A stretch of DNA of 64,000 nucleotides from a virus. The notes below the pieces were generated by a model. That model ran no database searches. It was given only the letters and a program-made list of their open reading frames with translations, and had not been told where the DNA came from. The stretch spans positions 64,001-128,000 of the IMG/VR virus record IMGVR_UViG_3300043395_003024; one strand, 5' to 3'. Positions 13,635 through 50,700 of this stretch are shown piece by piece (position 1 is the stretch's first letter; each line of letters opens with the position of its first letter). The position numbers were made by a program, and so were the translations under genes.

Positions 13635-16600
13635 ATGCCATCTGAACTGTTCGAATATAAGTCAAGTTCGCTTGGCAACTCCCTCTCATCCAAGGGTGGA
13701 AACATCAACCTGGACGAGGCTCAGGGCATAGTTGAGTGTTTCGTGGCCGGTATTGGGAATAAGGATTCGGTCGGTGACATCGTCGCAAGCGGCGCATTCA
13801 CAAAGAGCCTTCAGCGCCGTAAGCCACGCGTTGTTTGGGGCCACAGCTGGAATGACCCGATTGGCAAAGTTCTAGAGATTTACGAAGTTCCTAACACAGA
13901 CAACCGCCTACCGCTCAAGATGAAGATGGCTGGGATTGGCGGTCTTTTCGCTCGCGTCCAGTTCAACCTGAATTCAGAAAAGGGCCGCGAAGCCTTTGCG
14001 ATGGTTGCCTTCTTCGGCGAGGAACAGGAATGGTCAATTGGCTACAAGACGCTGCGAGCCCAGTTTGACCAGAAGTCTCAAGCAAATGTCATCTACGAAC
14101 TAGAGCTTTATGAGGTTTCGCCAGTTCTCCACGGAGCAAACCAGCTAACCGGAACAATTTCGGTTAAGTCGGACGAGCTCGCAGACAGAATGTCTGCAGT
14201 AATGGAAGATAGCGGAAGTGCTATCGATAAGGCCGAAATTGAGAAGCAATTGGCCGCGATTCTCGGTGAAAAAGTATCACTCATGGACGTAAACGATGAC
14301 GAGGTTACGTTCGCTCGCAGAATGCCCAACGGCGAAGTTGGCCGCTACAAGTGCGGCTTTAGTGGCAGCCGTGGTCGGTATATGTTCGGCGCCCCAGAAC
14401 CGATTGTTGTTATGCCAATGCGTAGGCCAATCGCGCCAGCGGCAAATATGCCGATGGCTGGACCTAGCATGCCTGCCAACGAGCCACAAAGAGTCATCCG
14501 ACCATCGCAGATGCCCTCAATGCCTGTGGCGATAAAGCCAGGCGAGAATGGCAATCGCATGGTTCCGCTCCCGCCAGTGGAGTACGAAGATGGTGGCAAA
14601 GACAGGGAAGAGCCAGAGTTCGACCCCAATAACCTAGACAGGGAAGAGGCCGACCTCAGGGATGCCCTTTTAAAAATTGTGAAGCGTCACGGTCGTTTTA
14701 ATGAGGATTCAACTGGTGTTTACGCGGCATACAGCTCGCCCGAGGAGAACGAAGTTGCCTCAATCGGAGTTAAGTGCGCAAACTGTGTTTTTTACCAAGG
14801 TGGAAATTCCTGCAAGATAATCGCAATGGATGTAGAGCCAGAAGGCAAGTGCAGATTTGCGGTTATCCCGAAGGGTGTCGTTAAGGGAAGCACGGCAGAT
14901 ACCAAGAATTATGAGCTCGATGAGGAGTTCGCGGAAGAGGACTACCTTGCCGAGCTTGAAGTTAAGTACCCAGGGGAACTAGCTGTTGCAGCTGTTCGTG
15001 GAGCAATAGGAAGACGCCGCAAGAAGCGTCGTAAGTTTAAACTTCTTGGCGAGTTTGGTTCAAAACAGGACGATTTTGATTTTGACGACAAGCCATACCT
15101 GTTGCCAGTTGTTCCGCAGTTTGCATTCCAGGTAAAACAGGCGCTTGACCCAATATTTGATTACCACAATGTTGACTCTTTTGTCGATGTAAACGGAATT
15201 GTCATCACATCTGGCGTTAGCTTTGAGTTGATTGAGGCAATTGACACAGCTGTCGAAAATCTAAAAAAAAAATCTCTAACTGAAAACGACATAGAGTGGA
15301 AGGCGGCTAGTTACCGCCTCGGTCGTGCTATCGGAAGTCGCCTAATTGACCGTCCAAACATCGGCGGTGGACGTACGCGTGGAAGATTCTTCACTTCAAT
15401 AGGCGCTGAAGACTTCGACCCATTTACAGCCCGTGATGCGAATCTAAACGGAATCGTTGGTGAAGGTTTGTTCCTTCGTGGTATAGCGCTAGCAACACCG
15501 GACCCCACCCCAGACGGCCCTGGCTCCATAAGGAACCCAAAGCCATCACCACGTCAGCTTTCAAAGCCGGAATCGGAAACAGTAGCCCGTATTGAGAATG
15601 CTGCCGGAAAGCTTTCATCGGGGAAAATAGAGCTAGACCTTCCACGATTTGATGACCCGGATATCGATTCGGCAGAAAAGTTTGGTGCAGCAGAGTCGCG
15701 GCGCGATGAACTTCAGGGCGTACTTGATGGTGCTACCGACCCAGAACAAATAAAGAAGCTAGAAAGAGCAATTTCAGAACTCGACAAGTACATGAACCGC
15801 GTCGAGAAGTTGGCCGAAAGCGAGATGGCTCAGTCTGAGAAGCCAAAGAAGAAGCCTGCAGCTGGAAAGGTAATAAAGGCCGGTCAGAAACTTTCTAGCG
15901 GATATGCAAAATACCTAGATAAGCCGAAATCAAAGCGTTCAATCGATGAGATAAACAAGTTTGATGGCCCGATTAGCGCTGCCTTGTCGTCTGGGAAATT
16001 GCCAGATAAAGCAGAGATTCCAGAAGATTCGCCGATACTGTCGGAAATGTATAAGCGGATGGCTGATGAAATAATCGCTGTTCTACAAGACCTGATTGAT
16101 AACCCCGAAAAGGCAAAACAATGGAAGATGCCGTGGCGAAATCCTGAAATTTTTGCCAGAAACCCAACGCGTAATCGTGTTTACCAGGGCATGAACCAGC
16201 TTGCACTTCTTCTGACTGCACAAAGTCGTGGATATACAACAAATAGATGGGCCGGAAAGACGCAGTGGCAGAAACTTGGTGGAAAACTAAAGCCAGGAGC
16301 TAGCGCACGCGGCGTTTCAATCCTCGTGCCGCGTGAGGGACGAATTCTAATGAACGCAGATGGCCAGCCGGTTGAGACTGGCCGCTACTACGTTGTTCAG
16401 ACTGTTTACAACGTCGATGATGTTGCTGGTCTGCCAAAGAAGTTCTACGAGGTTGAGGATAGCGCCATCAACCAGGAAGAGCGCCTACAGGACTTGGAAA
16501 ACGTAATTCAGGAAATAGGTCCTAAGTTTGTAGAGTCTAAAGGTCAGCAGGCTTTTTATCGCCCCATGACCGACAGCATCCACATGCCGGCGTTTGACCA

Positions 16601-19600
16601 GTTTGAAAATGCACTCGCATTTTATTCAACAGCAATGCACGAGACAATTCACTGGACTTCGCACCCAACGCGACTAAATAGAACTCTTGGCAAAGAGTTT
16701 GGTGATGAACAATATGCTTTCGAGGAGCTTATTGCCGAAATAGGTTCAGCATTTGCTCTTGGCTCAATGGGTCTCGAGCCAACAGTCCGCGAAGACCATC
16801 TTCTGTATCTAAATAGCTGGCTAAAGAAGCTCAAGTCAGACCCACTTGCGATACATAGGGCAATAGTCCAGGCACAGCAAGCAAATGACTATCTTCTTAA
16901 CCGTTCGGCGACAATGCGAAGACTTGCTGGCATACCTGACGATGAGCGTAAGGGCAAGGACGATATATGGTTCGAAGTTCCTATGCTCGCCGGCTATGAG
17001 GATATTGAGCCAATAAAGCCAACAACAACAATAACTGGCCCACTAGAGGACCTGCTTGACTCAGAAGCATGGGATGAATTTGTCCCAGATTCACCAAATC
17101 TGAGTATCGCGGAGCGCGAACTTCGTTCATACGACGTAGCGCCAAATGCGCCGTCAAAGAACAAGGCAGGAGTTGTTATTACTCCGTCCGGAGCGCTTGC
17201 AAGCGGTAAAAAGGCTGGGAAAATCAAGGGTACAAAGCCTGGCGTTCCAGAAATCGACAGAATTGCTGAAGATGTATCGCTAAAGCTTGCATTTGGTCTG
17301 GCTAATGAGCCCACAAATGAGCAGCGCGACATTATGGCTGTTGCTCTATCGCTTATCCACGGCAATAATCCTGCAATTTTAAGTGTTCTTGCTGGTGCTG
17401 GAACTGGAAAAACGACAACGCTTAAAAGCATCGCGTGGGCTCTTCAGAGAGAATTCGACCTATGGCCGGAAGGTGACCCAAGAAGGGCGGAACAGCTTGC
17501 TTACCTATCGGATAGATATGGAATTGATTTCAGCAAGATAAAACCAGAGAAGATTGCTGATGCAGTAACTGAGTTAGCAAAGAATAATAAAACCGGAAAT
17601 CTTTACTATACGGTTTTCAACACAAAAAACCAACTAGAAGCCGAAACAGAATTCCCACGAAATACGGGTATTGCTACTACGGACAAGCTCTGGCAGTGGT
17701 CGCTCCGTCTTGGTCAGGGTGACAAAAAGTATGGACCGGGCATGCGCAGAAAAATGGGCATGCTAAACAAGAGCCGAGAGAGCAAAAAGTCCATGCGTAG
17801 AAATCCGGCATGGAAGAGCGAAGAAGAGACGCCAGGCGTCGAAAAAATGATTGGAAAAAATTTCGTCAGAGAAAAATTTGACGGAACAACCGAAACGTTT
17901 GTTGGTGAGGACCCTGGTTTTGAGGCTCTTGGCTGGACAATGCTTCAAAAAGGTGACGACTTTGCTGAGCATCTTGGCCTAGAGAAATGGCCAGATGTTG
18001 TAAAAAGAAAGAAAATGAAGCCAGACGTGGATGCTTCCGGCAGGCCTATTCGTGATGAAAAAGGAAAAGTAAAGAAGTCAGAAGTAGAAGTAGAGGGTTT
18101 TGAACTTCCAAACGGAACGTTCCTTGAACTTTCCGAAATGGGCGACCTTCTATCTAACGCCCTTAAGCGCTGGGGTCTGTCCAAAGAAGAAAAAGTTACA
18201 GCACAACACTTCATGCCTCCAAAACAGAGACTTGAAGACATGGATACGCCGCGTGGAAAGGACAATCAACCCACAGGCGTTGACAGCATTCTCACCGAAG
18301 AGCAAATTCCTAAAAAATGGATTGAGGCGGTCCAGTCAATCGTGGACGAGATTGCAGATGGCGACTCTAACCTGCTACCAACAATGGAACTTGTGTCTAA
18401 ATTCTGGATGATGACAGACCCTGACCTGAGAACAGACCCAGGTTTAATTACGCACTCTTCAGCTCAAACAAGAGTAAAAGTATCCGTTCCATCATCGCTA
18501 CGCGAAGGCGATACATACGTTTATGACGGCGAAGAGTGGGTTGTTACAGGATTAACCAAAAAGGCTGGGAAAACATCAAGTGCTACCTTACGTAAAAAGA
18601 TGGCATCAAAGGAAAATCCCCTCGGTGCATTCTTGCTAGACGAGGTGCAAGACTCAAACGAGGTTCTCGAAACAGTTCTAGATAGGAATAGGGATAAGCT
18701 CCCTATTATTCTTGTCGGAGACGATAGACAGGCTGTCTATGCATTCCGCGATGCAAAGAATATTCTGGCGTCACTTGATTCAGAGTACTCACAGGACATT
18801 ACAGAGTCGTTTAGATATGGCGAAACTGTAGGTCATGCCGCAAACCTGGTTCTTGGAGCACAAAATGTTCATCTGCGTAGACAGGGTGTTAAGCAACAGC
18901 CGTGGAAGCACGTTAAGGGCCAGGCGCAAACTGTTATCAATAGGCAGTTTGACCCACTATTGCCAGAAAAAGATAGGCTCGGCAATAATCCGGTCGATGA
19001 AATAGATGATGCAACACGCCAGATATTGATAGCCGATATAGAGAAAAAATATTCTACTCCAGAGAAGAAGCTTGACCTGCTGTCACTAGATAGACCAGCA
19101 CAGGACAAGGCCTTAAAGGAGCTTAGGGATACGCTTTATGGACCAAAAGCTGGTCAAATAGTAGATAGATATGCAGAGGCCGATAAGGGCAATCTGCCAA
19201 CGATGATTCTCTGTAGAACAAACGGTGAAATAATCAACGAAGCTCTAAAGTTTATAAATATAGTCATAAATAGTAAGGCTGTTGAGCGTGATGAACGAGG
19301 CATGCCAAAACTACCTGAAGTAATTATTCCAGCTAGCAAGTGGGAGCAGCTTCTTACATTTACTAAGCACCTTGACTTCATAATGCGTTCACCTGCAAAG
19401 CAGCAAGAATACATAGCAAGATTTGGTAAGCCAGAGATGTCATCATGGCTCGGACCGATTTGGACACAGGGCACCTTGCAGAAAGCTCTCAATCAGTCAA
19501 AGTATCAACAGGCGCGCAGCGCATACAAACTGATAATGCAGCCGCCAAAGAGCGACCCAACTGCTCCGCCACTTGGCACTCGCGGCATGCTTGAACTTTT

Positions 19601-30200: not shown

Positions 30201-31686
30201 AAGCGATATAGCCGCGGCGCGCGAAAGACAACTTGATGAGGCGATAAGAGCGGCAGATATAGAACGTTCCGGCCGCTTATCAAGTGGCAAGAAAGGTTCG
30301 CCTGGTAGACAGAGCGTTGGACGTTTAGCAAAAATGCGCAAATCTAAGGCTGATAAGCGCAAAATTGAGCGCGAGCGTGAGCTACGTAATCTGTATGGCG
30401 AAGATGTTGGAGATATAACACGTTATTTCAGTGGAATGCTGTCTCGCGACGATGCTGACCTAATGATTTACAATGATTTTGTTGAGGGCGGCGAAAAAAT
30501 TGAAAGAGTGGCCCGCAGATATGAGATATCAACTGATGAAGTAAATAGTGCTATCGAGCGATTTAAAAATCTTGATGCAGAAACACAACAGGAACTACGG
30601 GATAGGGCAATAACACGAAATGGCCCATTACCAACAGAAACATCAGGAAGATTATCGTCTGGGAAAACACTCAACAGGTCGTCTGAACAGTATGCACGTG
30701 AATACTATTCTCGAATAGGTCTTCCAGAATCCGTAAGCAACGACTCTCTGCCAGTAAGCGGATATCTAGTTCACAAGTCGCATCTTGATGCCAAGAGACA
30801 GCAAATAATGAATTCAAAGAATGGCAACCTAAGGCCGGATGCTGTTTACGAGATAGGGGACGAAGACGTTGTTGGCGATGGACTGACAGCATTTGGCGAC
30901 ATAGAAATTGTTCTTAGACCATCAGTATCCGAGAGAACTGCTTATGGTCGCGGCAATTCAATATCGTCTGCTCATCGACCTGTCAAGCTAAACTCCCGCA
31001 ACAGAGAAGACGTTGCTGATGCTATATTGAACCCAGACGGCATCAACGGAGATAAGCAGGCGCAGGAAGCGTTCCTGCACATGCTTTCGTCGTCAATAAA
31101 TAACGATTTCTCAAACGTAAACGCGTCAAGAGGCTCGAAAGGAACAATGCCAAGTTCCTTTGACAAGAATCTTCCAGATGGTTCATCAAGAGAGCCGTTT
31201 GAAGCGCAGATACTTGGTGGATTTGACATAAATGAAGTCGAACAAGTCAATATCCCATTCAAGAGGCTTCAGTCTGCTGGCGAAAAAGAAAATATTAGCG
31301 ATGCGGTCAACGAGCGGTCAATAGCAGAGAAACTGAGGTCTGCTGGGTTCTCTCCAGAAGAGATTCAATATTTTTACTCAATCGGCGGTGGCAAAAATAT
31401 CAACACGCAAAGCATGGCAATGCTGCGACAGTACAGAGCATCTCAAAAAATAAAAACAGACATGGCCAGCAAGGGTCTTAATAATGTCAAGTTTGCCCAT
31501 CCAACCGGTTTCAACATAGAAGACCCGCGGTCGCACTCCAAGGCAGCAAGGGGAGGAGAGTCGGTCGAGTCCGTCCTGATTAGGGCTATTGGGGATGAAA
31601 TAGTCGAAGCTGCGAAAGACATGATGAAAGAAATGAAAAACAGCCGTAAGCCGCAAATAACGTCAACTTCTGGTGGAATGCTATGA
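24211..31686 (+). CDS. Giant polyprotein 2: zincin HExxH, degenerate ART-like, ParB/Srx-like, HTH and DUF3626-like segments
   Basis: HESAH (26017) + ALEASAELW; PILTTRDKYILDGHHRW (~29800); FGDIEIVL..R..GNS...EAQILGG; 5 LSSG linkers. Confidence 0.8.
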   Translation: MAKTPQTRERVIVSARLIVPTSCCGGFNEKAVRFRTSINSSVSSGRLQAEMATKAITSGFGIRVKAYVDTDNKKREFTGDSRPGVESNEYGYRWEKSATWEPGSRLVISPSFKSREGMGTEPNVGWIKPDKNAPKNFAETLERIRSKPTIKLSKYKVNPKTDEVIPDSEQVIDPFGITAGLSYEEKQKAIQKYKGNLIEKKMLPGRSLESRVPGGSLLSRAAAVFGILRDENNKFRCPPGTPAANQFTDATGSNCFGFSPSRFARFAARQAAKLTAEGEYQGLRNNARSFFNFLYNDQYSAEARGVADPALLGRSVYWDSISGDRFKPPSWREIEVPGNLRMFKNGAVRGQDDIARQKASVARIVESLGIDPADPDASLKAAQALRKMWEDTGGAAGWDLEILNVSGDGAALLDDFEIKQFMEARLQSVPGWGALSKEERDRLLLSDIGRYKETQKAMFDTLLDLFSKDPAGMRSIGRIEYNFFSDDEAGTSLYRDAPKLVQALNPDGTPRLDRDGNPVMRKVPGEMRTAIHINMAEILSNQESMLPDMRPDQRLAISAVGARSEAEGRLAVADFLINADYASRGMAGLLDGVYSFSSHIMLHESAHHKQAQLFQEKIMSEIADKGFITVPVIRDGVKIGERNVDSIYKLSGDDLMAIMTDTADSINLDSLNDAMERIKAIAPLAGSYPRDTYIEGSEVWALEASAELWALRERGIIYGEDIDAALEWMDSASFAAAARERASADDDSAMDSMDDVFRIPTPTTVPDDMPDDVIEETLADRDERLASELREEIKRFKTVFGELPEEEMFDEAAIIASQRDNAKRRLDAVRDFEIDPTLPDDERISLESMKAEAIKDCQRALDYHTKKYDEASKIWRKKYGVGASGEKKRFEDSVREVREREGLLDVGEMEEIARLADLDDLRESVKGMPEKKVIRKLADDEVRLSTMDPASPEARDLAERIDVIKDQHAKNLKEAGDTRSITAVKRDIDKKVKDTISPPPKPSKKFKSAKEASDHGARERRRVKATPEQKKAMKELGDVAESDVGMLLDPATQTRAGRAMNKRNARLKRLGLEVDPMSSDEADTVQQVEKLLIPTMEAIDGTSVADPFEMEAIIDFEAGVLKGKLDGKEVDVDKFVSGRVITSRTKKTDMPERGRRDAKTGRTSRRVVVQVREGDRGLFPATGGEGEQKFVAPPGRLRIIGRDSDGTIRAEISYQKDAVEVVDGMADSLSKNKTDAIWAQSHAKKIQAVADKYVSKRRASGKTFPGSRSDYDDVAAKSTSDVLDDVIDAGGSFGEGIDDLPPDGPSGRSGSLSSGAVNGKRSALGVPATRQQRTQSRESRMSSVTRNIKTALGGGRGDGSISRGDIHPEVADLIAGLPEEVLISRAQATAYRMHEGFDRRVRVRATDADIERLSSGRGIRSPFSSPSDETARASRRAERLAGMPPEQRSARLSSGRTIDSSENLAERRRQEKDVAKRALSVFDDVINSGQNVNDMSDDEISKRFGGSVKRSARKSISEKDSNLYEVDDVSTAVALMMLGHHVEVRDQDIRLTEQAQKVFEKEVKSVAKKHIKENHPRWRAFQEEYALKNPGLDIDNPDVRKAMESEYVGNYQADLCSLYNPANNLMCSGHIGIDREKMPQTNGRSSGQNTKAIMALKAGVAAGKWEPSKDGITRNRELEIEFAEELDAKIAKINRKRSQEIPPKDAVSDDEIPGILYEIIADKHSLRNELSGKTQREHMEDSFSLLSDKAKQWLYENTDWNDTEVNLETPFINWLNGVIDVEDPQNGAAVRLRKVDPSEYAPSQQQLVASKVDSTAQTIQETAIKIAEQIRAASPGISDEEFRVKYLEEMGKEWFMQPILTTRDKYILDGHHRWAGIVVGNRSLPPELQIPLSANEVQTDIIEGLTLGKVFQDAFGIKEARLGAELRWDGKQENIPQISPDEFDAISTDLTANAPRLIDEKYNQGDYIQLGSVGLRNNPDYAQAVEFRQRLARTRGQSDIAAARERQLDEAIRAADIERSGRLSSGKKGSPGRQSVGRLAKMRKSKADKRKIERERELRNLYGEDVGDITRYFSGMLSRDDADLMIYNDFVEGGEKIERVARRYEISTDEVNSAIERFKNLDAETQQELRDRAITRNGPLPTETSGRLSSGKTLNRSSEQYAREYYSRIGLPESVSNDSLPVSGYLVHKSHLDAKRQQIMNSKNGNLRPDAVYEIGDEDVVGDGLTAFGDIEIVLRPSVSERTAYGRGNSISSAHRPVKLNSRNREDVADAILNPDGINGDKQAQEAFLHMLSSSINNDFSNVNASRGSKGTMPSSFDKNLPDGSSREPFEAQILGGFDINEVEQVNIPFKRLQSAGEKENISDAVNERSIAEKLRSAGFSPEEIQYFYSIGGGKNINTQSMAMLRQYRASQKIKTDMASKGLNNVKFAHPTGFNIEDPRSHSKAARGGESVESVLIRAIGDEIVEAAKDMMKEMKNSRKPQITSTSGGML

Positions 31687-32841: not shown

Positions 32842-34858
32842 TTTTGGACAGTGCTGTGGGGATAGTGAAGTTCTCGTAACGCGAGTACTTCTTTTTAACC
32901 CTGCACAAAAACAAAACATTGACCACATACGCGGCATTAAGGCATTTTCTCAAGAAGCTACCGACTATAAGGCTCTTTCAAAGCGGTTCGGCAACACCAG
33001 GCGCACACAGCGAAATGACGTTACGAATGGTATGCAGTTCAAGGCAAATGCAGCGCGTCAAATAGGGAGCACGGTCCTTAGCACAATACTTCCGGGAGAT
33101 ACTGGACCACTTCGGTCTCCAGTTCGCTCTGCATTTTACCGAACAGTAACTCCTGGATTTGGTGGCGGACGGCGCGGTGGTTCTCTTCCTGGTCAGAATA
33201 GGGCAGCAAGATGTCCCGAGGGCTACCAATTTGGTGGCCGATTTACCGACAACCGCCTGTCAACATGCGGCGCAAAATTGTTTGACATACCGTCAGTTCT
33301 TGGGCTAGCAATCGGAGCAGCAAGACGAGCACTTACATCTGGGATATCTCCACAAACTCGCGGAAGAGATATCACCGGAGCCCCATACGATAGCTCGATA
33401 ATTCTTTCAAGGGCTCCGCAAATCCCGAAGGTCACATCGGGAAATCCAAGACTTGCCGCTGGAAGAGTCACCGATGAAATAAATGCCATAGGAAAATTCA
33501 ATAAAGAATCTGGCATCAAAGCAAGAAGGATGGTTCGACGAGACGGATTTGTCCTGGAACCAGTAGTTCCAAACAAGGTTCTCCGCGCAATACCTGACAA
33601 CAGAGATATGGAGGGCGCGTCATTCCTTATGTCTGCGCTATCCCCCAGGGATATTGGCGGTGAAGAGTTAGGGCTCTTGTCAAACACTGGCGTGAAGTCA
33701 CTTATTTACGTCCTTCCAGGAGGTTCGTCTATCACGCTAGAAAAAGCAAGACCATTGGAAATAGGCGAAAGACGCAAGCTTGGACGCGTCGTTAACCAGG
33801 TTGTGTCAATTGACAATTCACGTGACCCCTCAAAACGTCTCCGTTTCGTGGCTGATGAAATTGGAACCGGCCTTAAGTACTCAGAAAACTTCAAGGGCGT
33901 GAAGAATCCCAACGAAATAATCAAGGGAAGAATTAGTTGGGCCTCCCAGGTATGGGGCGGAAGACTTGCTTCTCAGCCAGAATCTTCGTCAATAAGAAAC
34001 ACGGAAACATTTGGGCCACGTCGCAAACTGATAAAGAGTGTTGATGAGGCGGTGCAGTTCCTGGTCGATGGTGGGAGCATGTCTGCAATTGACCCATCAA
34101 TAATGCCGAAAGTATTAGCTAAATCTGGTGTAATCCAAAAACAGAGGATGGCTAACAACATCACCGCAATCGCTACGCCATCAGAAAACCTGTTTCTATA
34201 TGAAAAGCCAAAAACGTTTCAGCACATTGGCGAAAGATTTGCCTCAGACGTTCAGCAGGCACTGGGGCTCGAGTCTCCTGACGTTATTTTTGCTGGTAAA
34301 CCCGGAGACACTAGGCAGTTCCTACGGCAAGAAGTTACATCTGCAATACCTGGTAGTAACTTCAACCCGGATGCAAAATTCAACGAGCTGGAGCCACGTG
34401 ATGTGGCAGCGATGCTCGTATCGGATTTCTTAACCGACCAGCGTGAGCGCCCAATGACGTCAATATATACGCTTGACACTCCAGATGCTCGACGTCTGGT
34501 TCTTGGACAGAATTCAACTTCTGGATTAATTGATTTATCAAAGATTGAAATTACCAAGAGAATGAAGCTGAGCCTTGAAGAGTTTTATTCATCGCAATTA
34601 ACGCCGTCTTACTCTGATTATTATCAGGCCCTTAAGGCCGAGCAGCGCATTATTTTTATGAAATACCTCTCGGAAATGATTAATCGCGCAAGAAAGTTTA
34701 ACCCAAATAACTTTAAAGACTCACTCAACCAGTATGGATTGTCCGAAGGTGAAAAAATCCATCTAAATATTCTTGGCAAACTTTTTGAGTCGCGCCTTGA
34801 AGTTCTAAAGATTCAAAAAAATACTCTAAGGAAGATAGTTACTGGAGCTTCGCAATGA
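32825..34858 (+). CDS. Head-module protein with degenerate HipA/PI3K-like kinase C-terminus
   Basis: ERFASDVQQALGLESP and VSDFLTDQRERPMTS resemble E..A...LGL..P and D....N.DRH..N. Confidence 0.6.
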   Translation: MNAVDDFGQCCGDSEVLVTRVLLFNPAQKQNIDHIRGIKAFSQEATDYKALSKRFGNTRRTQRNDVTNGMQFKANAARQIGSTVLSTILPGDTGPLRSPVRSAFYRTVTPGFGGGRRGGSLPGQNRAARCPEGYQFGGRFTDNRLSTCGAKLFDIPSVLGLAIGAARRALTSGISPQTRGRDITGAPYDSSIILSRAPQIPKVTSGNPRLAAGRVTDEINAIGKFNKESGIKARRMVRRDGFVLEPVVPNKVLRAIPDNRDMEGASFLMSALSPRDIGGEELGLLSNTGVKSLIYVLPGGSSITLEKARPLEIGERRKLGRVVNQVVSIDNSRDPSKRLRFVADEIGTGLKYSENFKGVKNPNEIIKGRISWASQVWGGRLASQPESSSIRNTETFGPRRKLIKSVDEAVQFLVDGGSMSAIDPSIMPKVLAKSGVIQKQRMANNITAIATPSENLFLYEKPKTFQHIGERFASDVQQALGLESPDVIFAGKPGDTRQFLRQEVTSAIPGSNFNPDAKFNELEPRDVAAMLVSDFLTDQRERPMTSIYTLDTPDARRLVLGQNSTSGLIDLSKIEITKRMKLSLEEFYSSQLTPSYSDYYQALKAEQRIIFMKYLSEMINRARKFNPNNFKDSLNQYGLSEGEKIHLNILGKLFESRLEVLKIQKNTLRKIVTGASQ

Positions 34859-35535
34859 AAATAGGTTTTATCAAAAATGCATTCGGCAACATGCCGCATG
34901 CTGTGGCGACAGAGGCCGATGGGAAGATTGAAGTAAAGTCAATAACTGAATTTGGCAAGTCAATAATCAACAATTTTGATTTTGATAAAGACAACATATC
35001 GAGTACTTTGCCGGAAGGATTCGTGTTTACGGGCTTTACGGAAAAAGCCATTCCAGCAGAATTTGAACAATCGCCAGACCATGTCAAAACAAAATCACTT
35101 GCATATTCCTGTTCATTTACTGCAGAGCAAATCGGCAAAAAATCAGCAGTTTCTAACATTTCAATCAACAAATTTACAAACAGCGCCGACAAATTAAATG
35201 CAATTTCATTTAAGGCATCAGCCTTTAAGTCATCAAGCAGACGTGGGGAATTTTTGGCCAGAATAAGTTCTAAAAAAATCTTGTTCGACCAGAGGCTTGC
35301 GCGTGTTTCTAATAACCCCAAATTTGCATTCAGCCATCTGGAAGAAGAGGGTTTAAAGAGTTATTTCAGTGACGGGTTCATGAGAAAGACTGCTCAAAAA
35401 ACAACGCTGAATCGCCGTGCGGCTAGGCGTGCTCGCGTTCTTTCGAGTATGAACGAAGAAGAAAAATCAAAGCCAAAGAAAAACATACTTTCACGTATTA
35501 ACACAGCTCGTAAGGATGTTAAAAATGGCCGCTAA
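34855..35535 (+). CDS. Hypothetical head-module protein
   Basis: ATGA-coupled ORF. Confidence 0.65.
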   Translation: MKIGFIKNAFGNMPHAVATEADGKIEVKSITEFGKSIINNFDFDKDNISSTLPEGFVFTGFTEKAIPAEFEQSPDHVKTKSLAYSCSFTAEQIGKKSAVSNISINKFTNSADKLNAISFKASAFKSSSRRGEFLARISSKKILFDQRLARVSNNPKFAFSHLEEEGLKSYFSDGFMRKTAQKTTLNRRAARRARVLSSMNEEEKSKPKKNILSRINTARKDVKNGR

Positions 35536-36342: not shown

Positions 36343-37701
36343 ATGTCGGAAGACAAAGCCCGTATCGAGGAGCTGCAATCAGCCCTCCGTCAGAAGATGG
36401 CAGACAATAAGACCATCGCTGACTCATTCAGAGTTGAGGACGGCACCGTTGTCGTTACTCCAGAGCAGAAGAGCGCGTTCGACAAGAACATGCGCGACAT
36501 CAAGGAAATCAAGGGCCTTCTCGGCGACCTTGAGACCATGAACTCAGTTGATAGCTGGGGTTCAGAGCCGTCAGGCGATTCAGCAGCCGCCGCTTACGCA
36601 GCTGCTGCCGCAGACATGAACCAACTGTCATCTCGTGAAATCAAGAGCATTGGTCAGATGTTCCTTGAGTCAGCAGAGTTCAAGGCTCTCAACGGTGGCC
36701 GTAATGGCGCAAACATGGCCGCTCCGTGGCAGGTTGCCGCTTCGCTAACATCTGGCTACAACGTCAAGGACGTGTACTCAGGTCTGCCTACAACAGACGT
36801 TACCGGTAGCCGTCTCGGTTCATTCGGCACGGTTCAGCGTGACCCAATGGTAACACCGCCAATGCGCACAAAGCGCGTTCGCGACCTGTTCCCAACACGC
36901 ACCACAAACGCTGCAGTGATTGAGTACTTCCGTCAACTCGGCTTCACCACGCTTCAGGCTGGTCATGGCACGAACTCGGCTTCTTCGGTCGCTGAGCGCA
37001 ACGCCGGCAACACAGCATTCGGTATCAAGCCGCAGTCATCGTTCGCCTTTGTTGGCGAGCAGGCGCCGGTTCGTACGCTCGCCCACTGGGAAGCAGCGCA
37101 CCGCAACGTCCTCGCAGATGAGCCGCAGCTGCGTTCAATCATCGACAACGAGCTCATGTATGGTCTCCGTCTCCTTGAGGACAACCAAATCCTCAACGGT
37201 GACGGCGTCGGCGAGAACCTGCTCGGCGTTCTGAACACCCCGAACATCCAGGAGTACGCATGGTCATCCGGTGCCGTTACCCCGGTCCCGGACACAAAGG
37301 CTGATGCTCTCCGTCGCGCTGCGACCCTCTCATTCTTGGCATACTACGAGCCGTCAGGCATCGTGGTTCACCCGAACGACTGGGAAGACATCGAGCTGAC
37401 AAAGGACGCCAATGGTCAGTACCTCATCGCGGTTTCGGTCGCAATGGGTGGCGAGCCACGCGTCTGGAGAATGCCAATCGTGGACACCCCGGCAATGACC
37501 GAGGGTACAGCACTGGTCGGTGCGTTCGGTACCGGCGCACAGCTGTACGACCGCGAGCAGGCGAGCATCCGCATCAGCGAGCAGCACTCGGACTTCTTCG
37601 TCCGCAACGCCATCGTCATCCTCGCGGAGCAGAGACTGGCACTCGCCGTCAAGCGTCCGGAGGCCTTCGTGAAGGTGGACTTCGACAACGCCCCTGACTG
37701 A
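36343..37701 (+). CDS. Major capsid protein, HK97 fold
   Basis: Coiled-coil N-terminal delta domain, VRTLAHW, LEDNQILNGDG, VVHPNDW, KDANGQY, RLALAVKRPEAF; AAGGAG RBS; strongly biased codons. Confidence 0.95.
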   Translation: MSEDKARIEELQSALRQKMADNKTIADSFRVEDGTVVVTPEQKSAFDKNMRDIKEIKGLLGDLETMNSVDSWGSEPSGDSAAAAYAAAAADMNQLSSREIKSIGQMFLESAEFKALNGGRNGANMAAPWQVAASLTSGYNVKDVYSGLPTTDVTGSRLGSFGTVQRDPMVTPPMRTKRVRDLFPTRTTNAAVIEYFRQLGFTTLQAGHGTNSASSVAERNAGNTAFGIKPQSSFAFVGEQAPVRTLAHWEAAHRNVLADEPQLRSIIDNELMYGLRLLEDNQILNGDGVGENLLGVLNTPNIQEYAWSSGAVTPVPDTKADALRRAATLSFLAYYEPSGIVVHPNDWEDIELTKDANGQYLIAVSVAMGGEPRVWRMPIVDTPAMTEGTALVGAFGTGAQLYDREQASIRISEQHSDFFVRNAIVILAEQRLALAVKRPEAFVKVDFDNAPD

Positions 37702-37716
37702 TAGAGGCTGAGTAGT

Positions 37717-37771
37717 GGGGTAACCCCCGGGAGTAATCGCTCAATGCGGTGAAACCGGGGGTTTTACCTTT
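37717..37771 (+). terminator. Probable intrinsic terminator after MCP
   Basis: AACCCCCGG (37722-30) / CCGGGGGTT (37755-63) stem followed by T-rich tract. Confidence 0.65.
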
Positions 37772-37802
37772 ATGGACGACAATATGTGGGAAGATGGTGT
37801 GT

Positions 37803-38618
37803 ATGACAAATCCTATTGATGACACCGAAAAACTCTATGAAGAGCTACAGTCGGTAGCCGACCATATAGAGACAGAGCTAGAGCTGGAGCGCATCGCCGA
37901 GCAGTCGCTAATAGAGCTAAAGCGGCTAGAGATGATGCCAATTTTTGACGAGTACTATGCGTCTGATTTATTTGCCGACATAGCGGAGAAGGGCACTAAG
38001 AGGCCAGTTTTGAGAGACCCCAAAGGGGGATTAACGGCTGCGGGAAGGGCATACTTCAAAAGGAAAGAGGGGGCCAACCTCAAACCCGGGGTTCGCGGTG
38101 CGGCAAATACGCCTGAAAAAATGCGTCGCAAGGGTTCATTTCTGACAAGATTTTTTACCAATCCATCTGGTCCAATGAAGGATGAAAAGGGACGTTCCAC
38201 AAGATTGGCACTCTCTGCCGCCGCGTGGGGGGAGCCGGTTCCTCAGGACATGGAGGATGCCAGAAAATTGGCTGCCAAGGGGCGGCGAATGCTTGAAAGA
38301 TATCAGAATACAAAGAAGAAAAAGAAGTCTGATTCAGAAGTTGACATCTTCAACAAAACAGCAAGCGAGAACTATTTTTCCCATAAGAACGACCCAGACA
38401 TGGAAGGCGTGTGGAGCGGAAACATCGTCGATTTAGACGACTTTGATTTTGAAGCAGAAAAGAATATGCGTATTGCAATAAGAAGCAACCTTGCGCATAT
38501 GGGTGCATCCAAAAAGTCAATTACCTCATATGTTCCTAGCGACGAAGATACGAAGAGGCGTATACACCATGCCGCTAAAGTGATGAACAAGCGTCGGAAT
38601 AAGAAACAAAATGGCTGA
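37803..38618 (+). CDS. Hypothetical protein with basic DPKGGLTAAGR domain (DUF6321-like)
   Basis: DPKGGLTAAGRAYFKRKEGANLKPGV...RRKGSFLTRF. Confidence 0.65.
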   Translation: MTNPIDDTEKLYEELQSVADHIETELELERIAEQSLIELKRLEMMPIFDEYYASDLFADIAEKGTKRPVLRDPKGGLTAAGRAYFKRKEGANLKPGVRGAANTPEKMRRKGSFLTRFFTNPSGPMKDEKGRSTRLALSAAAWGEPVPQDMEDARKLAAKGRRMLERYQNTKKKKKSDSEVDIFNKTASENYFSHKNDPDMEGVWSGNIVDLDDFDFEAEKNMRIAIRSNLAHMGASKKSITSYVPSDEDTKRRIHHAAKVMNKRRNKKQNG

Positions 38619-39012
38619 GCAATACTGGTACTCCGCAACGGTTCTCAAGGTAATCGATGGCGACACCTTGGACGTGATGATTGACCTTGGATTCAATATT
38701 CACCACAAAGCAAGGGTCCGGCTATATGGTGTAAATACCCCGGAGTCACGGACAAAGGACCTCGCCGAGAAAGACATGGGCCTTAAGGCAAAGTCGTTCA
38801 CATCAGACTGGACTACCCGTCATCAAACTGTGTTTTTGCAGACAATTGCTGGCAAGGATGACAAATACGGGAGAATACTTGCCCAAATATATTCAGATAA
38901 AGACATAAAATCAGAGCAGACAGCATGCCTCAATGAGGATATTGTGTCTTCTGGTTACGCTAGGGCCTACTTTGGCGTTGGCGATAAGACATGGGAAGAG
39001 TTTAAGAAATGA
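38611..39012 (+). CDS. Thermonuclease (SNase-like)
   Basis: KVIDGDTLDV, VRLYGVNTPE, DKYGRILA. Confidence 0.88.
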   Translation: MAEQYWYSATVLKVIDGDTLDVMIDLGFNIHHKARVRLYGVNTPESRTKDLAEKDMGLKAKSFTSDWTTRHQTVFLQTIAGKDDKYGRILAQIYSDKDIKSEQTACLNEDIVSSGYARAYFGVGDKTWEEFKK

Positions 39013-39464
39013 CAGAGACAACATGGGGTTCGTACAGAGGCCCTATTAAGGGAATTCGCATCGAAGTGAAGGCTGATGGCGAGCAGTGCCCAACAGCAAC
39101 ACAGGACATCGCAGTTAACCTAAAAAATAGAGCAAAAGCCATTGCTGTTGCGGACTATGGACCACTTAACCCAGGCGAAGCAAACGATGGTTACTGGGCA
39201 AAGATGGCCAAAGAGTGGGATGTAACACCAGAAGAGGCGCAAAAGCAGCGCTGTGGAAACTGTGCAGTCTTCATAGTTAGCCCTAGAATGAAATCCTGCA
39301 TTGAGTCTGGCCTTGTCGGGGAGGATAGACCAGACGAGTGGGGAGCAATTGATGCTGCCGGCGAACTTGGGTACTGCGAAGCTTTCGATTTCAAGTGTGC
39401 ATCAAAGAGGACATGCCGTGCGTGGGTGACGGGTGGACCGATACGTGAAGAAAAGCCTAAGTAA
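39009..39464 (+). CDS. Cys-rich hypothetical protein
   Basis: RCGNCAVF...GYCEAFDFKCASKRTCRAW. Confidence 0.7.
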   Translation: MTETTWGSYRGPIKGIRIEVKADGEQCPTATQDIAVNLKNRAKAIAVADYGPLNPGEANDGYWAKMAKEWDVTPEEAQKQRCGNCAVFIVSPRMKSCIESGLVGEDRPDEWGAIDAAGELGYCEAFDFKCASKRTCRAWVTGGPIREEKPK

Positions 39465-39957: not shown

Positions 39958-40033
<76 letters not shown>

Positions 40034-40039
40034 CTGAGT

Positions 40040-40546: not shown

Positions 40547-40550
40547 ATGG

Positions 40551-42476: not shown

Positions 42477-42563
42477 AATTTCCTTAACGTAGGTTGATTA
42501 ACAACTGGAGGAAAAGAGTGTAGCGCAGATATGAATACAGAAAAAGTCGAGAGTAGATGTGAT

Positions 42564-42899: not shown

Positions 42900-42912
42900 A
42901 TTTATATTTTAT

Positions 42913-43551: not shown

Positions 43552-43644
43552 GCATGAATACTAAACAAATATGTCTACATTTTAAGGTAAAGAAATAAAC
43601 GTCTTTTCACTCGCGCGCCACACGTATGCGCTAGTGTCTTCGAT

Positions 43645-44082
43645 ATGAGCGATAGCAAGAAAAAGACCCCAGCCAAGAAGCAGCCCGCCAAGAAGGCTCC
43701 TGCAAAGAAGGCAACAGCCAAAAAAGTTCCTGCTAAAAAGCAGGCCGCCAAGAAGGCCCCCGCAAAGAAGGCCCCTGCCAAGAAGGCGCAGCCAACAAAG
43801 GCTCCTGCTAAGAAGAAGAAGACGCCTGTCGAGACTGCTTTTGAGGCGATTGATTCGATTGAAGCACATGAGCTGCATCATGAGGAAATGATGAACGCCC
43901 TCAACAGCCACATGATGAAGGCTCTCGATGCCGCTGAGACAATAAAGATTGATTTTATCGACGACACTCGCGACAACATTGTTGAGTGGGCCCAGGAGTG
44001 GGTTACCCCTGACTCGCCATCAACACCGGTGGCAAAAAAGGGATTCTTCAAGCGCTTCATTGCTTCGTTTATTAAGCGCTAA
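43645..44082 (+). CDS. Histone H1-like (PAKK repeat) protein
   Basis: Repeated KKAPAKK units in N-terminal half. Confidence 0.75.
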   Translation: MSDSKKKTPAKKQPAKKAPAKKATAKKVPAKKQAAKKAPAKKAPAKKAQPTKAPAKKKKTPVETAFEAIDSIEAHELHHEEMMNALNSHMMKALDAAETIKIDFIDDTRDNIVEWAQEWVTPDSPSTPVAKKGFFKRFIASFIKR

Positions 44083-44110
44083 ACGAATTCGGTAAGAGGG
44101 GTCTTGCCGA

Positions 44111-44524
44111 ATGACTACGGAAAGACGAAGAGCGCCAAGGCGCAAAATATTATCTATCGAAAAAATTGGTAGATGGGGACAGCTAACGTACAACCACAAG
44201 CTCGAGTGTGGTCATGTCGATGTTAGAAAAAGAGCTGCGAACTCTGACGAAATAGCATGTATGTGGTGTTTGCGCGCCGAAGAACAAGCAGTAGAACTAA
44301 AGAAGTTAACAGCACCGCCAGTTCAAAGCGTTTTCTATGACGACAACCTCGCAGAAGAGGAGACGCGAATTGAAAAAACGCGAGCGGCAATAGCGGCAAG
44401 AATTGGTGTGCCCATGGAGGCCGTCGATATTGCCGCAGAGGATGTTGGCGGAATTCTTGTAATCCGCAGCGCCGTCGTGTATCTTTCTGCACGTGATGTA
44501 AATCGCATTTCGGGGGACACCTAG
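44111..44524 (+). CDS. Hypothetical protein with putative zinc site
   Basis: LECGH...CMWC. Confidence 0.65.
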   Translation: MTTERRRAPRRKILSIEKIGRWGQLTYNHKLECGHVDVRKRAANSDEIACMWCLRAEEQAVELKKLTAPPVQSVFYDDNLAEEETRIEKTRAAIAARIGVPMEAVDIAAEDVGGILVIRSAVVYLSARDVNRISGDT

Positions 44525-44550
44525 CCTCCGGTAATTCATGGGAGGGCCAG

Positions 44551-44886
44551 ATGAAAGCAATTAGTCGCATAGACGAACTTCCACGCGGAGGTGACTGCGC
44601 TGGGCATGACCCCGACATTTGGTTCCCGATGGCCGATAAATCAGAGCCCGGCGAATTCTCCCGAAAAATCCGTGAGGCCAAACTAAACACAGAGATTGCC
44701 AAGAAAATCTGCTCAACTTGCCACATCCGGCAGGAATGTTTGTCCTACTCGCTTTATCACGAAATGTTTGGAATATGGGGTGGGGCGACAGAGCGGGAAC
44801 GTCAGAAGATTCGTAAACAGCTGAACATTGTTCCCATACCACGCATACCTGTTAATCTGCTTTTCCTCTCATCGCAGGCAAATTAA
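44551..44886 (+). CDS. whiB: WhiB-family transcription factor
   Basis: C...DPDIWFP...AKKICSTCHIRQECL..GIWGGATERER. Confidence 0.93.
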   Translation: MKAISRIDELPRGGDCAGHDPDIWFPMADKSEPGEFSRKIREAKLNTEIAKKICSTCHIRQECLSYSLYHEMFGIWGGATERERQKIRKQLNIVPIPRIPVNLLFLSSQAN

Positions 44887-46730: not shown

Positions 46731-47395
46731 GCGACGAAAAATCAAAACCGATTACTACTAAAGAGTTTCTCAACGAGAGAGACATGCGTATTTTCAAGAT
46801 GCGCCAGGCCGGTACGTCTGTCAATGAGATAGCCAGAAGATTCGGCATCTCAACATCGTCTGTTTCACGCTCAATTCAGCGTCAACTGGAAAAGATGAAT
46901 AAGGAAGCCATCCTGGCCTACCCAGAGGTGCTCAGAATGGAGTTGGAGCGCCTAGACAACCTCCAGCAGGCTATTTGGCCCATGACGCAGCACAGGCGCG
47001 TTGTAATGGACGACGGTACAGAGATGCAGGTAGAACCAGACCTGAAAGCAATCCAGCAGGTGCTCTCAATTATGGACAGAAGAACGAAACTTCTTGGCAT
47101 GGAGCAAACAAATGTCAATGTAAATATTGACGGGAATATCAACTCTCAGGTTCGCGCAACAATTGCTGGCCAGCCTGGAGTTACGACGCCGGCGTCTGGT
47201 TTTGACGCTGAATCTGAAGCTAAAAAGCTGCTTGAACTCATGGCGATTTCTGGCGTATTGCCGGAGGAAACTGTTTCTTCAATTCTTCGGAAACATCAAG
47301 AAGATGAAGGTTTGATAATTGATGCTGAAGTAGTATCTGACTCAGAAGAAGAGCCTAGATACAGGGATTTCAGCGACGATGAGCCAGGAAAATAA
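46727..47395 (+). CDS. HTH protein, probable terminase small subunit
   Basis: HTH SVNEIARRFGIS; ELERLDNL...AIQQVLSIMDRRTKLLG. Confidence 0.65.
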   Translation: MSDEKSKPITTKEFLNERDMRIFKMRQAGTSVNEIARRFGISTSSVSRSIQRQLEKMNKEAILAYPEVLRMELERLDNLQQAIWPMTQHRRVVMDDGTEMQVEPDLKAIQQVLSIMDRRTKLLGMEQTNVNVNIDGNINSQVRATIAGQPGVTTPASGFDAESEAKKLLELMAISGVLPEETVSSILRKHQEDEGLIIDAEVVSDSEEEPRYRDFSDDEPGK

Positions 47396-47702
47396 CCAAG
47401 AAGAGACTGACAACATCCGCTCCGCCATGGACAAGGTGGCGGAAACGTTAACCCCCAGCATTTCCACGTCAATAGATGCTGAAGATGGGCCAGCAGACAA
47501 GCAGGTTCTAATCAGAACTAACGATTATGAACGAAATCGCTGGAAAGAAGCCGCCTCCATTGAGCAGATTTCCCTTTCTGCGTGGATTCGAACAGTCCTC
47601 AATTCTGAAGCAAAGCGCCTCCTGGAATGTGACCATCCAATGAATATGGTCCGCTTCTACCCGTGGTCAAAAATATGCACCAAATGCGGTAAGCGCCTCT
47701 AA
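47379..47702 (+). CDS. Ribbon-helix-helix-like protein with C-terminal zinc motif
   Basis: VLIRT...WKEAA...SLSAWIR; CDH...CTKCG. Confidence 0.6.
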   Translation: MSQENNQEETDNIRSAMDKVAETLTPSISTSIDAEDGPADKQVLIRTNDYERNRWKEAASIEQISLSAWIRTVLNSEAKRLLECDHPMNMVRFYPWSKICTKCGKRL

Positions 47703-47736
47703 TTGGCCTTTATTTGTAATGGTATTATTTATTTAG

Positions 47737-50700
47737 ATGTCTGCAGATAATCAAGAGTTTCACATTCCCTTTGAGGAATCTCGTCGCGGTGCAAATTCAA
47801 GCCCGGAAAAGAAAGCTGCCCTAGGAAGACTTGGCCGCTATCTTGGCTCAAGAGCTATCGATAGGCCACGAATTGGCGACGGTCACCGTGATAGAAGACG
47901 CGGAAGGGACCATGGATTAAACATAGACCTGCCGACCGGCGGTAGACCGGGAAACAGACGCCCAACCGGTAGCCGCCTAGACCCAGATAATGATGGCTGG
48001 GCAGACGAGGGGACAACTAAGCCGGTATGGGTTGGCATTGGCGGTGCTGAAAATCGCAATACCCGAGCGTCAGGTACGAGAATGGCGGAAGAGCCAGACA
48101 CGTCGAGAACGCTTTCTTCAGGGAAGAAGTATCAGGAGATTGTTGATTCCCAGCCACCCGTGTCTGACGAAAAGAAAAAACTTGCATCTGAGTTTATAGA
48201 CGATATAAAGCAGGGTGAATTTTTAAAAGAAGACGTATACGAGGAAGAAAAAGGTCCTCGCCCACCACGGCCGCCTGGAATGCCGGAGCCAAAACCGTTA
48301 ATGGTAATCCAGGACAATGAAGACAGGAAGCTAGAAAAACAGCGTGTCCGCGATTTGTTGGCTGAGCTTTTTAAAGGTGAAATGACACTTGATGAAGACA
48401 TTATTATTACCACCGACGATGGGAAAAAAATAAATATAGGCAACAGGGTATTGATAGACATTGCTCCTAGCAGTGACTCGAAATACTCTACTTCTGTAAA
48501 AGTTCATAAGGCTAACGATGCGGATATCGCTGATGCCAAAGAGCTATATGGTGATACATTCGAACCGGGCGACATGCTGACCGAGGTTCAGCTTGGGTTT
48601 TTGGTTAGACCGCTTCCAGAGTACGAAAAAGAACTCATCGAATCATTAACGGACGAAAATAAAAAATCATTTCTCTCCTATGAAGATGGACGTTTATCGC
48701 TAGCACGCGCATATAGAACATATATCAATGTTTCTAATGACGAAAAAAACCTGGGATTAATTTCTCATGATTCATTTTATGTTCTTGGCATGGCTCAGGG
48801 CCAGGGGATAGGTTCGGCGTTTAATGCCAGAAATGAAAAACTATATAACGAGCTTGATGTTGCTTCGATATATACACACGGCCATTCAGGCAAGGGGGCA
48901 CGCGGCGCTGTCCATTGGCCCAAGAATGGATTTACGTGGGCTGGAGAAAACGACAAACAGAAGTTCTTATCGATAATCGACAAGGCCATCACGGAGCAAC
49001 CAGAAATATTCTCTGCGGAAGATAAAAAGAAAATATCTTCTCTATATAGAAAAAATCCAGATACTGGGCTTTTTGAAACAGAAGCAACAGCCGAGGAGCT
49101 TGTCGACTTCCCCGCCGCATATGAAGTATTTGCGGATGAAGAAGCACAGATAATGTACTCAAGGCCGCTAAAACAGCTCGCAGTGGCATCCTCGGGCCGT
49201 CTATCGTCCGGCTCAACTAAGCGTAGCTCTCGTGGAGTCCACGTATCAGAGCTGTACGACGGCGACTATGGCACGTGGGAAGAGGGGGCATTGCTCACTC
49301 CAGAATCACTATACAGACTCATATCTAGAGTGTTTGAAAAAAACGATATAGATGCGTCTTTGCCTAAATACGATGGAGCTCTTGAAAAAATAACTGAGTA
49401 TAAAGATTTTGGGTCAGTAATTAATGACTCACTAAGGCTGGGTTACACATTTGATGACCCGCGGTCCCCCAACCTGTACGAATATGCGTCTATGCAGCGG
49501 CTCCTAATGGACAACAGAATAACCGCCGGCATAACGTTGTATAGGTCAATCGCGAATACGCCAGAAATTGCATCGCTTAAAGAGGGTGACACATTTGGCG
49601 ATAGGGGCTTCCAGAGCTTTACAGTGATGGCCCCAGGCCAATACTCTGGAATGGGAGACAAAAGGCCAATAGTTCTTCGCTTATTAACAACAAAGAACAC
49701 GCGTGGCAGATACATATCTAGACGCCCAAATGACTATAACCTAGAAAACTTTGATACCCGGAAGCCTCTCGACGAAAGATATTTTGGAATAAATGAACAC
49801 GAAGTATTGCTGCCTGCTGGTGCAACATACAAGCTGGTTAAGAAGACGCAGACTGATGATGGACGTGAAATCTGGGACGTCAAACTTTCCGGTCAAGGCA
49901 AGCTCAGTTCTGGGGCAAAAGAAGTAGCACTAGATAATGTTGATTCCAATACGCTAAGTAGCGGGAAACCACCACGTCACCCAAGAACGCCAACGCTTGG
50001 TGCATTTATCGGTACTGCTGATGAAGAATTCGCAGACATAAAATCGTGGGACGAGTTTAAGAAGCTGTACGACGACAAAGAAGTTATATTTTTTGACTAT
50101 GAAACAACCGGATTAGTTTTTGACGAATTCGGGAAAGAGATTAGTAAAGGTGCGCCAGTCCAGTTCGGTGCCGTGAAAATAAAAAACGGCAAAGAGGTCG
50201 AAAGAATAAATCTGTTCATGAATCCTGGAGAGCCACTCGGTGAGTGGTCTAGGAATAATCTCAAAGATAAAGACGGAAATCCACTAACAGATGAATGGCT
50301 GGGCAGCCAGATATCTATAGACGAAGCACATAAGCAGCTGATTGAGTTTGCGGGCCCAGAAGCAATATTTGGCGTTCAGAATGCCACATTTGATAAGGGA
50401 GTTCTTGACGGCGTTCTGGAACAAATGGGTGAAAAGTGGCGCCCATCTGGATACCTGGACACGAGAGAAATAGCTTCCCTAACTCTCCCAAAGTGGACCC
50501 CGGAAACGGATGACGGTCCGTTCATGCTTGACAAAGAAGGAAATAAAAAGCCATCTAGTAGCCTTGCTGCAATAACCGAATATCTCGGAGTAAACCTCGG
50601 CGATGGCCACCATAACGCTGACTCAGATGCTTTTGCAACAAGCCAAGTAATGCGCCGGATTATTGATGGGGCTATCGAAAAGAATTGGCCGACAGATGCT

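Follow-up and report, generated by a model that had tools for sequence, protein, structure and literature searches.

The stretch of DNA that concerns us here (the window, 64,000 nucleotides in length) corresponds to bases 64001–128000 of IMG/VR record IMGVR_UViG_3300043395_003024, an uncultured phage of 145,204 bp and 48.6% G+C, and all coordinates below are positions in that window. It encodes three giant proteins, which we call PP1, PP2 and PP3, and our subject is a 24-residue leader that PP1 and PP3 have in common and that is probably, to judge from sequence comparisons, a tag for the loading, trimming and delivery of both. The PP1 gene has the portal gene on one side and the capsid gene on the other, the terminase gene lying upstream, and its product has an S78 protease physically fused to its cargo. 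The PP3 gene lies outside this head cluster, its upstream neighbours being a primase-helicase gene and a helix-turn-helix (HTH) regulator gene, so that only the shared leader speaks for its packaging. The principal features are as follows.

13635–22466, plus strand: PP1, a polyvalent protein of 2943 residues with an S78 protease, the leader module, ArdC-N, an MPTase-PolyVal zincin and a UvrD-like helicase (from the list of open reading frames, ORFs, and from Pfam)
13728–14159, plus strand: Peptidase_S78, the HK97-type prohead serine protease domain, PP1 residues 32–175 (Pfam PF04586, E=1.7e-11)
15300–15371, plus strand: leader copy 1, PP1 residues 556–579
47737–56583, plus strand: PP3, a cassette protein of 2948 residues with an RNase_T exonuclease and other modules (ORF list and Pfam)
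47812–47883, plus strand: leader copy 2, PP3 residues 26–49

The zincin of PP1 is supported by Pfam (MPTase-PolyVal, E=2.6e-40), and the translations of PP2 and PP3 show only zincin-like His-Glu-x-x-His motifs; PP3 and its relatives carry RNase_T, GNAT and ADP-ribosyltransferase (ART) domains.

The two leader copies are identical at 17 of their 24 positions, as against 9–11 identities for the best ungapped 24-residue match between PP1 and 30 shuffled PP3 sequences. When PP1 and PP3 (about 2,950 residues each) are compared by BLASTP, the leader is the only significant local match (16/23 identical, E=0.002), the next high-scoring segment pair having E=1.3, and PP2 gave no BLASTP match to either protein. 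Both copies have E-x-K in front of them, and after each come an Arg/Gly tract, a loop of the form D-x-[DN]-x-[DN]-G and then the first LSSG, a motif found 18 times in PP1, PP2 and PP3 together and at most once or twice in any other frame of the window. The initial annotation had described this arrangement, with the same positions and the same identity, for two proteins that it held to be otherwise unrelated, and it is borne out on all of these points. At the DNA level 34 of 72 bases agree and different codons are used at 15 of the 17 identical residues, from which it follows that this is not a recent repeat and that the similarity is old; on the evidence of the codons, the likeness is held by selection on the protein. 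A search of the whole 145,204-bp genome found only these two copies and no third. PP2 lacks the leader: its N-terminus is formed by another conserved sequence, and there is no conservation of its V-S-S-G.

The 24 matching residues form the centre of a larger conserved unit some 100 residues long, the ‘cargo head-piece’, made up in turn of an invariant Lys with Ala or Ser after it, a segment that is basic and rich in Gly, the Arg/Gly tract, a loop of DxDxDG type and the first LSSG joint. In PP3 it is preceded by a short conserved sequence of its own, which we considered as a capsid-targeting sequence (CTS) of the shared, T4-like kind and ruled out as such, since it is unique to PP3 in this genome.

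15303–15623, plus strand: PP1 cargo head-piece, comprising the leader, the Arg/Gly tract, a DxNxNG loop (15435–15467), a Pro-rich stretch and the first LSSG (15612–15623)
47737–47814, plus strand: PP3 pre-sequence, PP3 residues 1–26, conserved and acidic, ending E-K-K; a candidate propeptide
47815–48123, plus strand: PP3 cargo head-piece, comprising the leader, the Arg/Gly tract, a DxDxDG loop (47980–48012) and the first LSSG (48112–48123)

How widely is this module found? A tblastn search with both leader modules against 50,697 GenBank phage records returned no relative, no cultured phage with the leader was found, and no Pfam family covers either PP1 residues 540–660 or PP3 residues 1–130. 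IMG/VR has 459 stretches that are related to PP1 residues 1–700, along with further relatives of the PP3 N-terminus. Every PP1 relative that we examined, the most remote having 48% identity, has the leader at residue ~540–585, straight after a conserved Lys-Lys-Lys; in PP3-type proteins it always lies within residues 22–56, starting at residue 22–25 after the conserved acidic pre-sequence. Over 36 distinct copies the consensus reads [I/L]-E-x-K-[A/S]-x-G-x-R-[L/I]-G-x-x-x-G-S-R-x-[I/V]-D-R-P-x-[I/L]-G-G, in which the Glu, the Lys, one Arg and the Pro are invariant; remoter copies retain the Lys and the small residue after it, and not always the Glu. Two copies are present in 14 of 15 related IMG/VR records, three of the 14 being complete genomes with terminal repeats, and the remaining record was judged to be 55% complete. 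One related record gave a third leader match, of only 14 bits. Finally, a profile scan of 1.84 billion representative proteins yielded 34 matches, all but one of them in two placements, namely residues 536–590 of proteins of ~2,850–4,100 residues (plus one fragment of 856 residues) and residues 20–56 of proteins of up to 4,703 residues; the odd match, in a protein of 1191 residues, is likely to be an N-terminally cut fragment of PP1. The leader is thus a property of a single uncultured phage family, in which it occupies two fixed positions. The outcome that the initial annotation named as support, namely that a hidden Markov model of the leader finds it heading diverse multi-domain proteins, was not obtained for phages in general, given this confinement to two placements in a single family; the cargo behind the leader is nonetheless very diverse. 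Taken together, the comparative data support the view that the leader is a conserved functional unit which, throughout a large family of relatives, marks the point in both proteins at which the cargo starts.

What follows the leader is variable. In most lineages the first LSSG-type joint comes 85–285 residues past the leader, and the part after the leader occurs in three types, of which the one that PP3 bears in this window is carried elsewhere, in other genomes, by PP1; there are also genomes in which the two proteins have a single type between them. By these types, whole modules are exchanged between PP1 and PP3, and such interchangeability argues for one common function. Across 10 non-redundant lineages, PP1 and PP3 copies that belong to one genome resemble each other more closely than do those of different genomes (p=0.002 over 30 residues and 0.001 over 125 residues), and when the two lineages with whole-module exchange are taken out the values become p=0.03 and 0.06, respectively. 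Further downstream, the RNase_T exonuclease of PP3-type proteins may start anywhere from residue 151 to residue 2506, and GNAT and ART cassettes come and go; judged by domain content, the modules of PP3 are shuffled freely behind a fixed N-terminus. As a separate observation, some relatives of ~1,700–1,750 residues (P0053–P0055), which have HTH or Mor-like domains together with RNase_T, match the PP3 N-terminal profile, and these may have arisen by the joining of the upstream HTH gene to PP3, or else may be a gene-calling artefact.

The E-x-K that stands before each leader leads directly to the question of proteolysis. The HK97 prohead protease, which is of the same Pfam family (S78) as the PF04586 domain that this phage encodes in PP1, cuts its capsid protein between Lys103 and Ser104 (PMC10275583), residues that we checked in the capsid sequence, and the capsid scaffold domain is the classic substrate that such proteases fragment (PMC12749128). 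The relevant features are these, with the arrow marking the predicted cut.

15294–15305, plus strand: predicted protease site in PP1, Glu554-Trp-Lys556↓Ala557, which resembles HK97 Lys103↓Ser104
36343–36702, plus strand: capsid scaffold (delta) domain, with three leader-type E-x-K-[A/S] sites (36463–36480, 36637–36654 and 36676–36693)

A position-specific scoring matrix (PSSM) of six columns (P3–P3'), made from the leaders only, finds three sites of at least 6 bits in capsid residues 1–120 and none in residues 121–452. Composition-preserving shuffles of the scaffold domain gave three hits in just 2 of 20,000 trials (P~1e-4), and with a genome-wide density of leader-type sites of 0.6 per 1000 residues, the domain is enriched about 40-fold. 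The capsid proteins of all five aligned relatives keep all three sites; two have Asp in place of the Glu at the first, and the residue after the Lys is Ser, Thr or Ala. AlphaFold2 predicts a helical scaffold domain (helices at capsid residues 2–27 and 40–67, with a predicted local distance difference test score, pLDDT, of 70–84), and for the boundary between scaffold and N-arm the model was of no help, being poor outside residues 1–66 (mean pLDDT 35). One of the capsid motifs, E-I-K↓S-I-G, has a strict six-residue pattern present only in PP1 and in the capsid protein, and we considered it as the capsid maturation site; this idea was rejected, since homology to phage D3 and HK97 puts the final cut some 40 residues further on and the longer PSSMs do not support it. 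We therefore retain the weaker claim, which is that leader-type sites, as scored by the six-column matrix, are enriched in the capsid scaffold domain, and we consider cleavage after the Lys of the leader to be likely on the strength of its resemblance to these sites and to that of HK97.

Immediately ahead of the PP1 leader there is a second candidate processing element, this time in the nucleic acid.

15263–15272, plus strand: A10 run coding for x-Lys-Lys-Lys, 10 codons upstream of E-x-K; a probable slip site

The run is conserved down to its bases, being A10 in 31 of 38 distinct relatives, A11 in four and A9 in three. The neighbouring codons vary synonymously, and the codon before the run differs in the residue it encodes and always ends in A; elsewhere PP1 favours AAG for Lys (87 AAA to 131 AAG). 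Gain or loss of one A would bring a stop within 4–9 codons in every one of the 36 relatives tested, and in three loci (L053, L068 and L077) the frame is broken at the Lys-Lys-Lys run, which is A9 in L053 and L077, the two for which the bases were read. From this pattern, the run is a probable programmed slip site that would also give a cargo-less form of the protease, ending just before the leader, and a cut at E-x-K would leave the long form with nearly the same protease fragment as the slip product. This suggests a short and a long form of PP1 in the manner of Gag-Pol.

Physically, the leader is strongly basic, with an isoelectric point (pI) of 11.4–11.8, and the proteins that bear it have a pI of 5.3. 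With 12 aligned PP3 N-termini as input, AlphaFold2 predicts a single helix at residues 23–41 (pLDDT ~54), a better defined region round the DxDxDG motif (pLDDT 72–76) and disorder for the rest. Gly or Ala occurs at every fourth position along the predicted helix. The idea of an amphipathic helix was set aside, the hydrophobic moment of the leader being not above that of shuffled sequences.

How might all of this work? The reading that we favour, and to which we would give an even chance, is that the head-piece marks the start of the effector cargo in two giant polyvalent proteins carried in the head, and that these are loaded, cut after the Lys and then held by the leader until they exit. In such a scheme the precursors would enter the procapsid by means of what lies upstream of the head-piece. 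For PP1 the vehicle would be the HK97-type protease and the middle region of ~370 residues, in Gag-Pol manner, with slippage at A10 probably also making the cargo-less protease; for PP3 it would be the conserved 26-residue pre-sequence, possibly aided by the leader. The prohead protease would then cut after the invariant Lys (E-x-K↓A/S), at a type of site that is present three times in the capsid scaffold, so that both cargos would begin with the same basic Gly-rich leader (pI 11–12), and this in turn would hold them on the packaged DNA, the shell or the portal until they leave with the DNA. The LSSG joints would be cut separately, perhaps by the zincin carried in each protein. Of these elements, we infer the cut, the packaging of PP3, the binding partner of the leader and its role in the exit; what the sequences show is that the module is conserved, has a fixed placement and copy number and is exchanged between the two proteins, and that leader-type sites are enriched. 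The proposal of the initial annotation, by which a prohead-protease cut after Lys gives both proteins one mature N-terminus that serves in packaging or ejection, is supported in part.

A number of observations weigh against this scheme. PP2 has LSSG joints and no leader, and PP3 sits among replication genes and not among head genes. The enrichment in the scaffold domain comes from a six-column window that was picked after the capsid motif had been noticed, and with PSSMs of 11 and seven columns the capsid sites fail to reach a high rank. The mature N-arm of the D3 capsid begins at residue 114, and homology to D3 and HK97 would put the final capsid cut here at about residue 135–145, which is not a leader-type site; D3's own cleavage site is not Lys-Ser. 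The leader helix is of low confidence (pLDDT ~54) and has no significant hydrophobic moment. Lastly, if the LSSG joints were cut inside the head, the leader would be parted from the enzymes and so could not guide their exit.

What else might the module be? One alternative is a chance or low-complexity resemblance without function, and it could appeal to the Arg/Gly-rich character of the region and to a single pairwise E-value of only 0.002; with position and sequence conserved over relatives down to 48% identity, two copies in 14 genomes, saturated synonymous sites and shuffles that give 9–11 identities against 17, its likelihood is negligible, and we regard it as refuted by the comparison of sequences. 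The main rival, possible though in our view doubtful, is a removable address label, by which the whole module of ~100–125 residues would bind the procapsid interior and then be lost by a cut at the first LSSG, the partner being either the scaffold domain of the capsid or the protease-scaffold half of PP1, and E-x-K belonging to the binding motif and not being a cut site. In this it would be like the T4 CTS or the propeptides of 111–130 residues on SPN3US ejection proteins. Such a label would account for a first LSSG-type joint that bounds the module downstream in both proteins and their relatives, for a module predicted to be disordered except for one helix and the loop, and for the co-variation of the two copies within genomes, which fits a common binding partner; long N-terminal targeting propeptides that are removed by prohead proteases also have precedent (PMC7411985). 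However, PP1 is already equipped with a vehicle, its protease, and ought not to require a further address; the first LSSG lies at distances that differ by a factor of three; and a label would not explain either the invariant Lys with its small neighbour or why the scaffold domain is enriched in such sites.

Co-variation of the two copies, of which there is one per protein in each genome, can also be read as the mark of a pairing handle, in which the leaders would associate helix to helix by a small-x-x-x-small pattern, consistent with the Gly/Ala spacing of the predicted helix, and PP3 would ride in on PP1. We think this very unlikely, as the helix prediction is weak and the co-variation comes mostly from the two lineages that have exchanged whole modules (p=0.03 and 0.06 without them). 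It is likewise improbable that the module is not a virion signal at all but acts in the infected cell, either in the docking or activation of zincin processing, possibly in a Ca2+-dependent fashion through the DxDxDG loop, or as a tag for nucleic-acid binding or localisation. That PP3 has the primase-helicase and an HTH regulator as neighbours, and lies away from the head module, would suit a role of this kind, as would the very basic nature of the leader and the tract that follows it and the zincins themselves, Pfam-supported in PP1 and represented in PP2 and PP3 by no more than zincin-like motifs. Yet PP2 has both a zincin-like motif and LSSG joints without having the leader, in PP1 the module is located precisely where it meets the prohead protease and the slip run, and the profile scan found the leader in no protein outside this phage family.

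It is instructive to set the leader and its module beside systems that are already known. In phage T4 the CTS of internal proteins IPI–III and of Alt is a short peptide that several head-packed, injected proteins share and that lies beside a prohead-protease site (PMC7411985, PMC9024508). The leader is also short, lies beside a candidate protease site and is common to otherwise unrelated proteins of one phage, PP1 and PP3 having no other similarity, as is the case in the 14 related records too. The differences are considerable: the T4 CTS is 10–20 residues at the extreme N-terminus, upstream of the cut and removed by it, whereas the leader lies downstream of the predicted cut, with one copy internal (residue 556) and the other placed after a pre-sequence (residue 24–26), and the protease is of the S78 HK97 type in place of T4 gp21. 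In a CTS the cut falls on the C-terminal side; here the best candidate site (E-x-K↓A/S) lies N-terminal and the first LSSG ~100 residues downstream, and we found no sequence similarity between the leader and the T4 CTS. In phage P1, the first 30 residues of DarB, an anti-restriction protein of 250 kDa, direct DarB, and likewise a reporter, into a capsid for which one of the capsid protein's own domains serves as scaffold (PMC9024508). PP1 resembles DarB in carrying anti-restriction (ArdC) domains, but the Dar proteins have no consensus signal, and here two proteins have a clear common signal coupled to a protease-type site. Ejection proteins of SPN3US and phiKZ-like phages have propeptides of 111–130 residues that the prohead protease cuts off and that are proposed to target the prohead (PMC7411985); these match our module in size, although the protease and its motif are T4-like and no common leader sequence has been reported.

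The polyvalent proteins, as defined by Iyer et al. 2017 (PMC5512222), are giant strings of unrelated enzymatic domains, predicted to be packed in the head and injected. PP1 combines several disparate activities and a zincin MPTase in one chain, and is encoded among the virion and packaging genes of a portal-terminase phage; PP3 is not so placed. Between them, proteins of the PP1 and PP3 types have ArdC-N, the MPTase-PolyVal zincin, helicase, exonuclease, GNAT and ART. That survey reports an assemblin-like protease only at C-termini, with MuF or portal domains as the loading vehicles, and it describes no common leader, E-x-K junction or slip run (PMC5512222). HK97 offers the same protease family, a capsid protein that has its scaffold domain at the N-terminus, and Lys at P1 with a small residue at P1', but its protease is a free protein of 225 residues and here it is the N-terminus of a protein of 2943 residues. 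We know of no effector cargo packed by HK97. In retroviral Gag-Pol and in herpesvirus UL26/UL26.5, enzymes enter the particle as an extension of the assembly protein, one gene gives a short and a long form, and the viral protease frees the parts. We liken PP1 to these by its presumed mode of working and not by membership, as here reading in frame would give the long form, and slippage at A10 the short one.

Short N-terminal packaging signals are thus familiar from T4 and P1, and what we have not found described in the literature is a common leader downstream of a protease-type site, the rule of two copies per genome or the slip run; reading on the sites of the T5 protease and on LSSG in phages gave nothing useful. 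How a phage selects the proteins that enter its head and pass to the next host is known for only a few models (T4 and P1) and not for the widespread giant polyvalent proteins. A short, defined and transferable sequence at the start of the cargo, with candidate protease and slip sites next to it, furnishes a testable handle on this problem, by which one might ask which residues load, which get cut and what stays on the cargo, in a phage family with hundreds of metagenomic relatives. The sequence might also be put to use in tagging proteins for packaging into HK97-type capsids and related nanocompartments. One can go further and imagine a complete Gag-Pol-like loading system, in which A10 would set the ratio of cargo-less to fusion protein, the junction of protease site and leader would be a universal and transferable coupling for any array of cargo, PP3 would enter by leader pairing, and the result would be a portable tag by which arbitrary protein, in megadalton amounts, could be loaded into HK97-type capsids; as a package we hold this to be rather unlikely.

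The remaining features of the region that bear on its head genes, and the third giant protein, are these.

9747–11084, minus strand: large terminase, in the head-gene cluster, upstream of the portal
11404–13503: portal gene, in the head-gene cluster
24211–31686: PP2, 2491 residues, with no clear Pfam domain
36343–37701: gene for the HK97-fold major capsid protein, in the head-gene cluster

The closest GenBank relatives of the capsid protein are from actinobacterial phages, at 47–49% identity. Directly upstream of its gene is an ORF of 226 residues (34855–35535) that also has three leader-type sites, and this may be another substrate of the protease, for example a scaffold or internal protein. 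Just past the gene, an R-L-S-S-G at 37708–37719, in frame two codons beyond the double stop of the capsid, was set aside as most likely due to chance, being absent in four relatives. Two small ORFs 3' of the capsid gene (37749–38618 and 39009–39464) have a common Cys-rich domain; the former is matched by DUF6321, and a similar C-G-N-C ... C-E-A-F-D-F-K-C pattern is found both in the latter and in PP1 at residues ~380–410.

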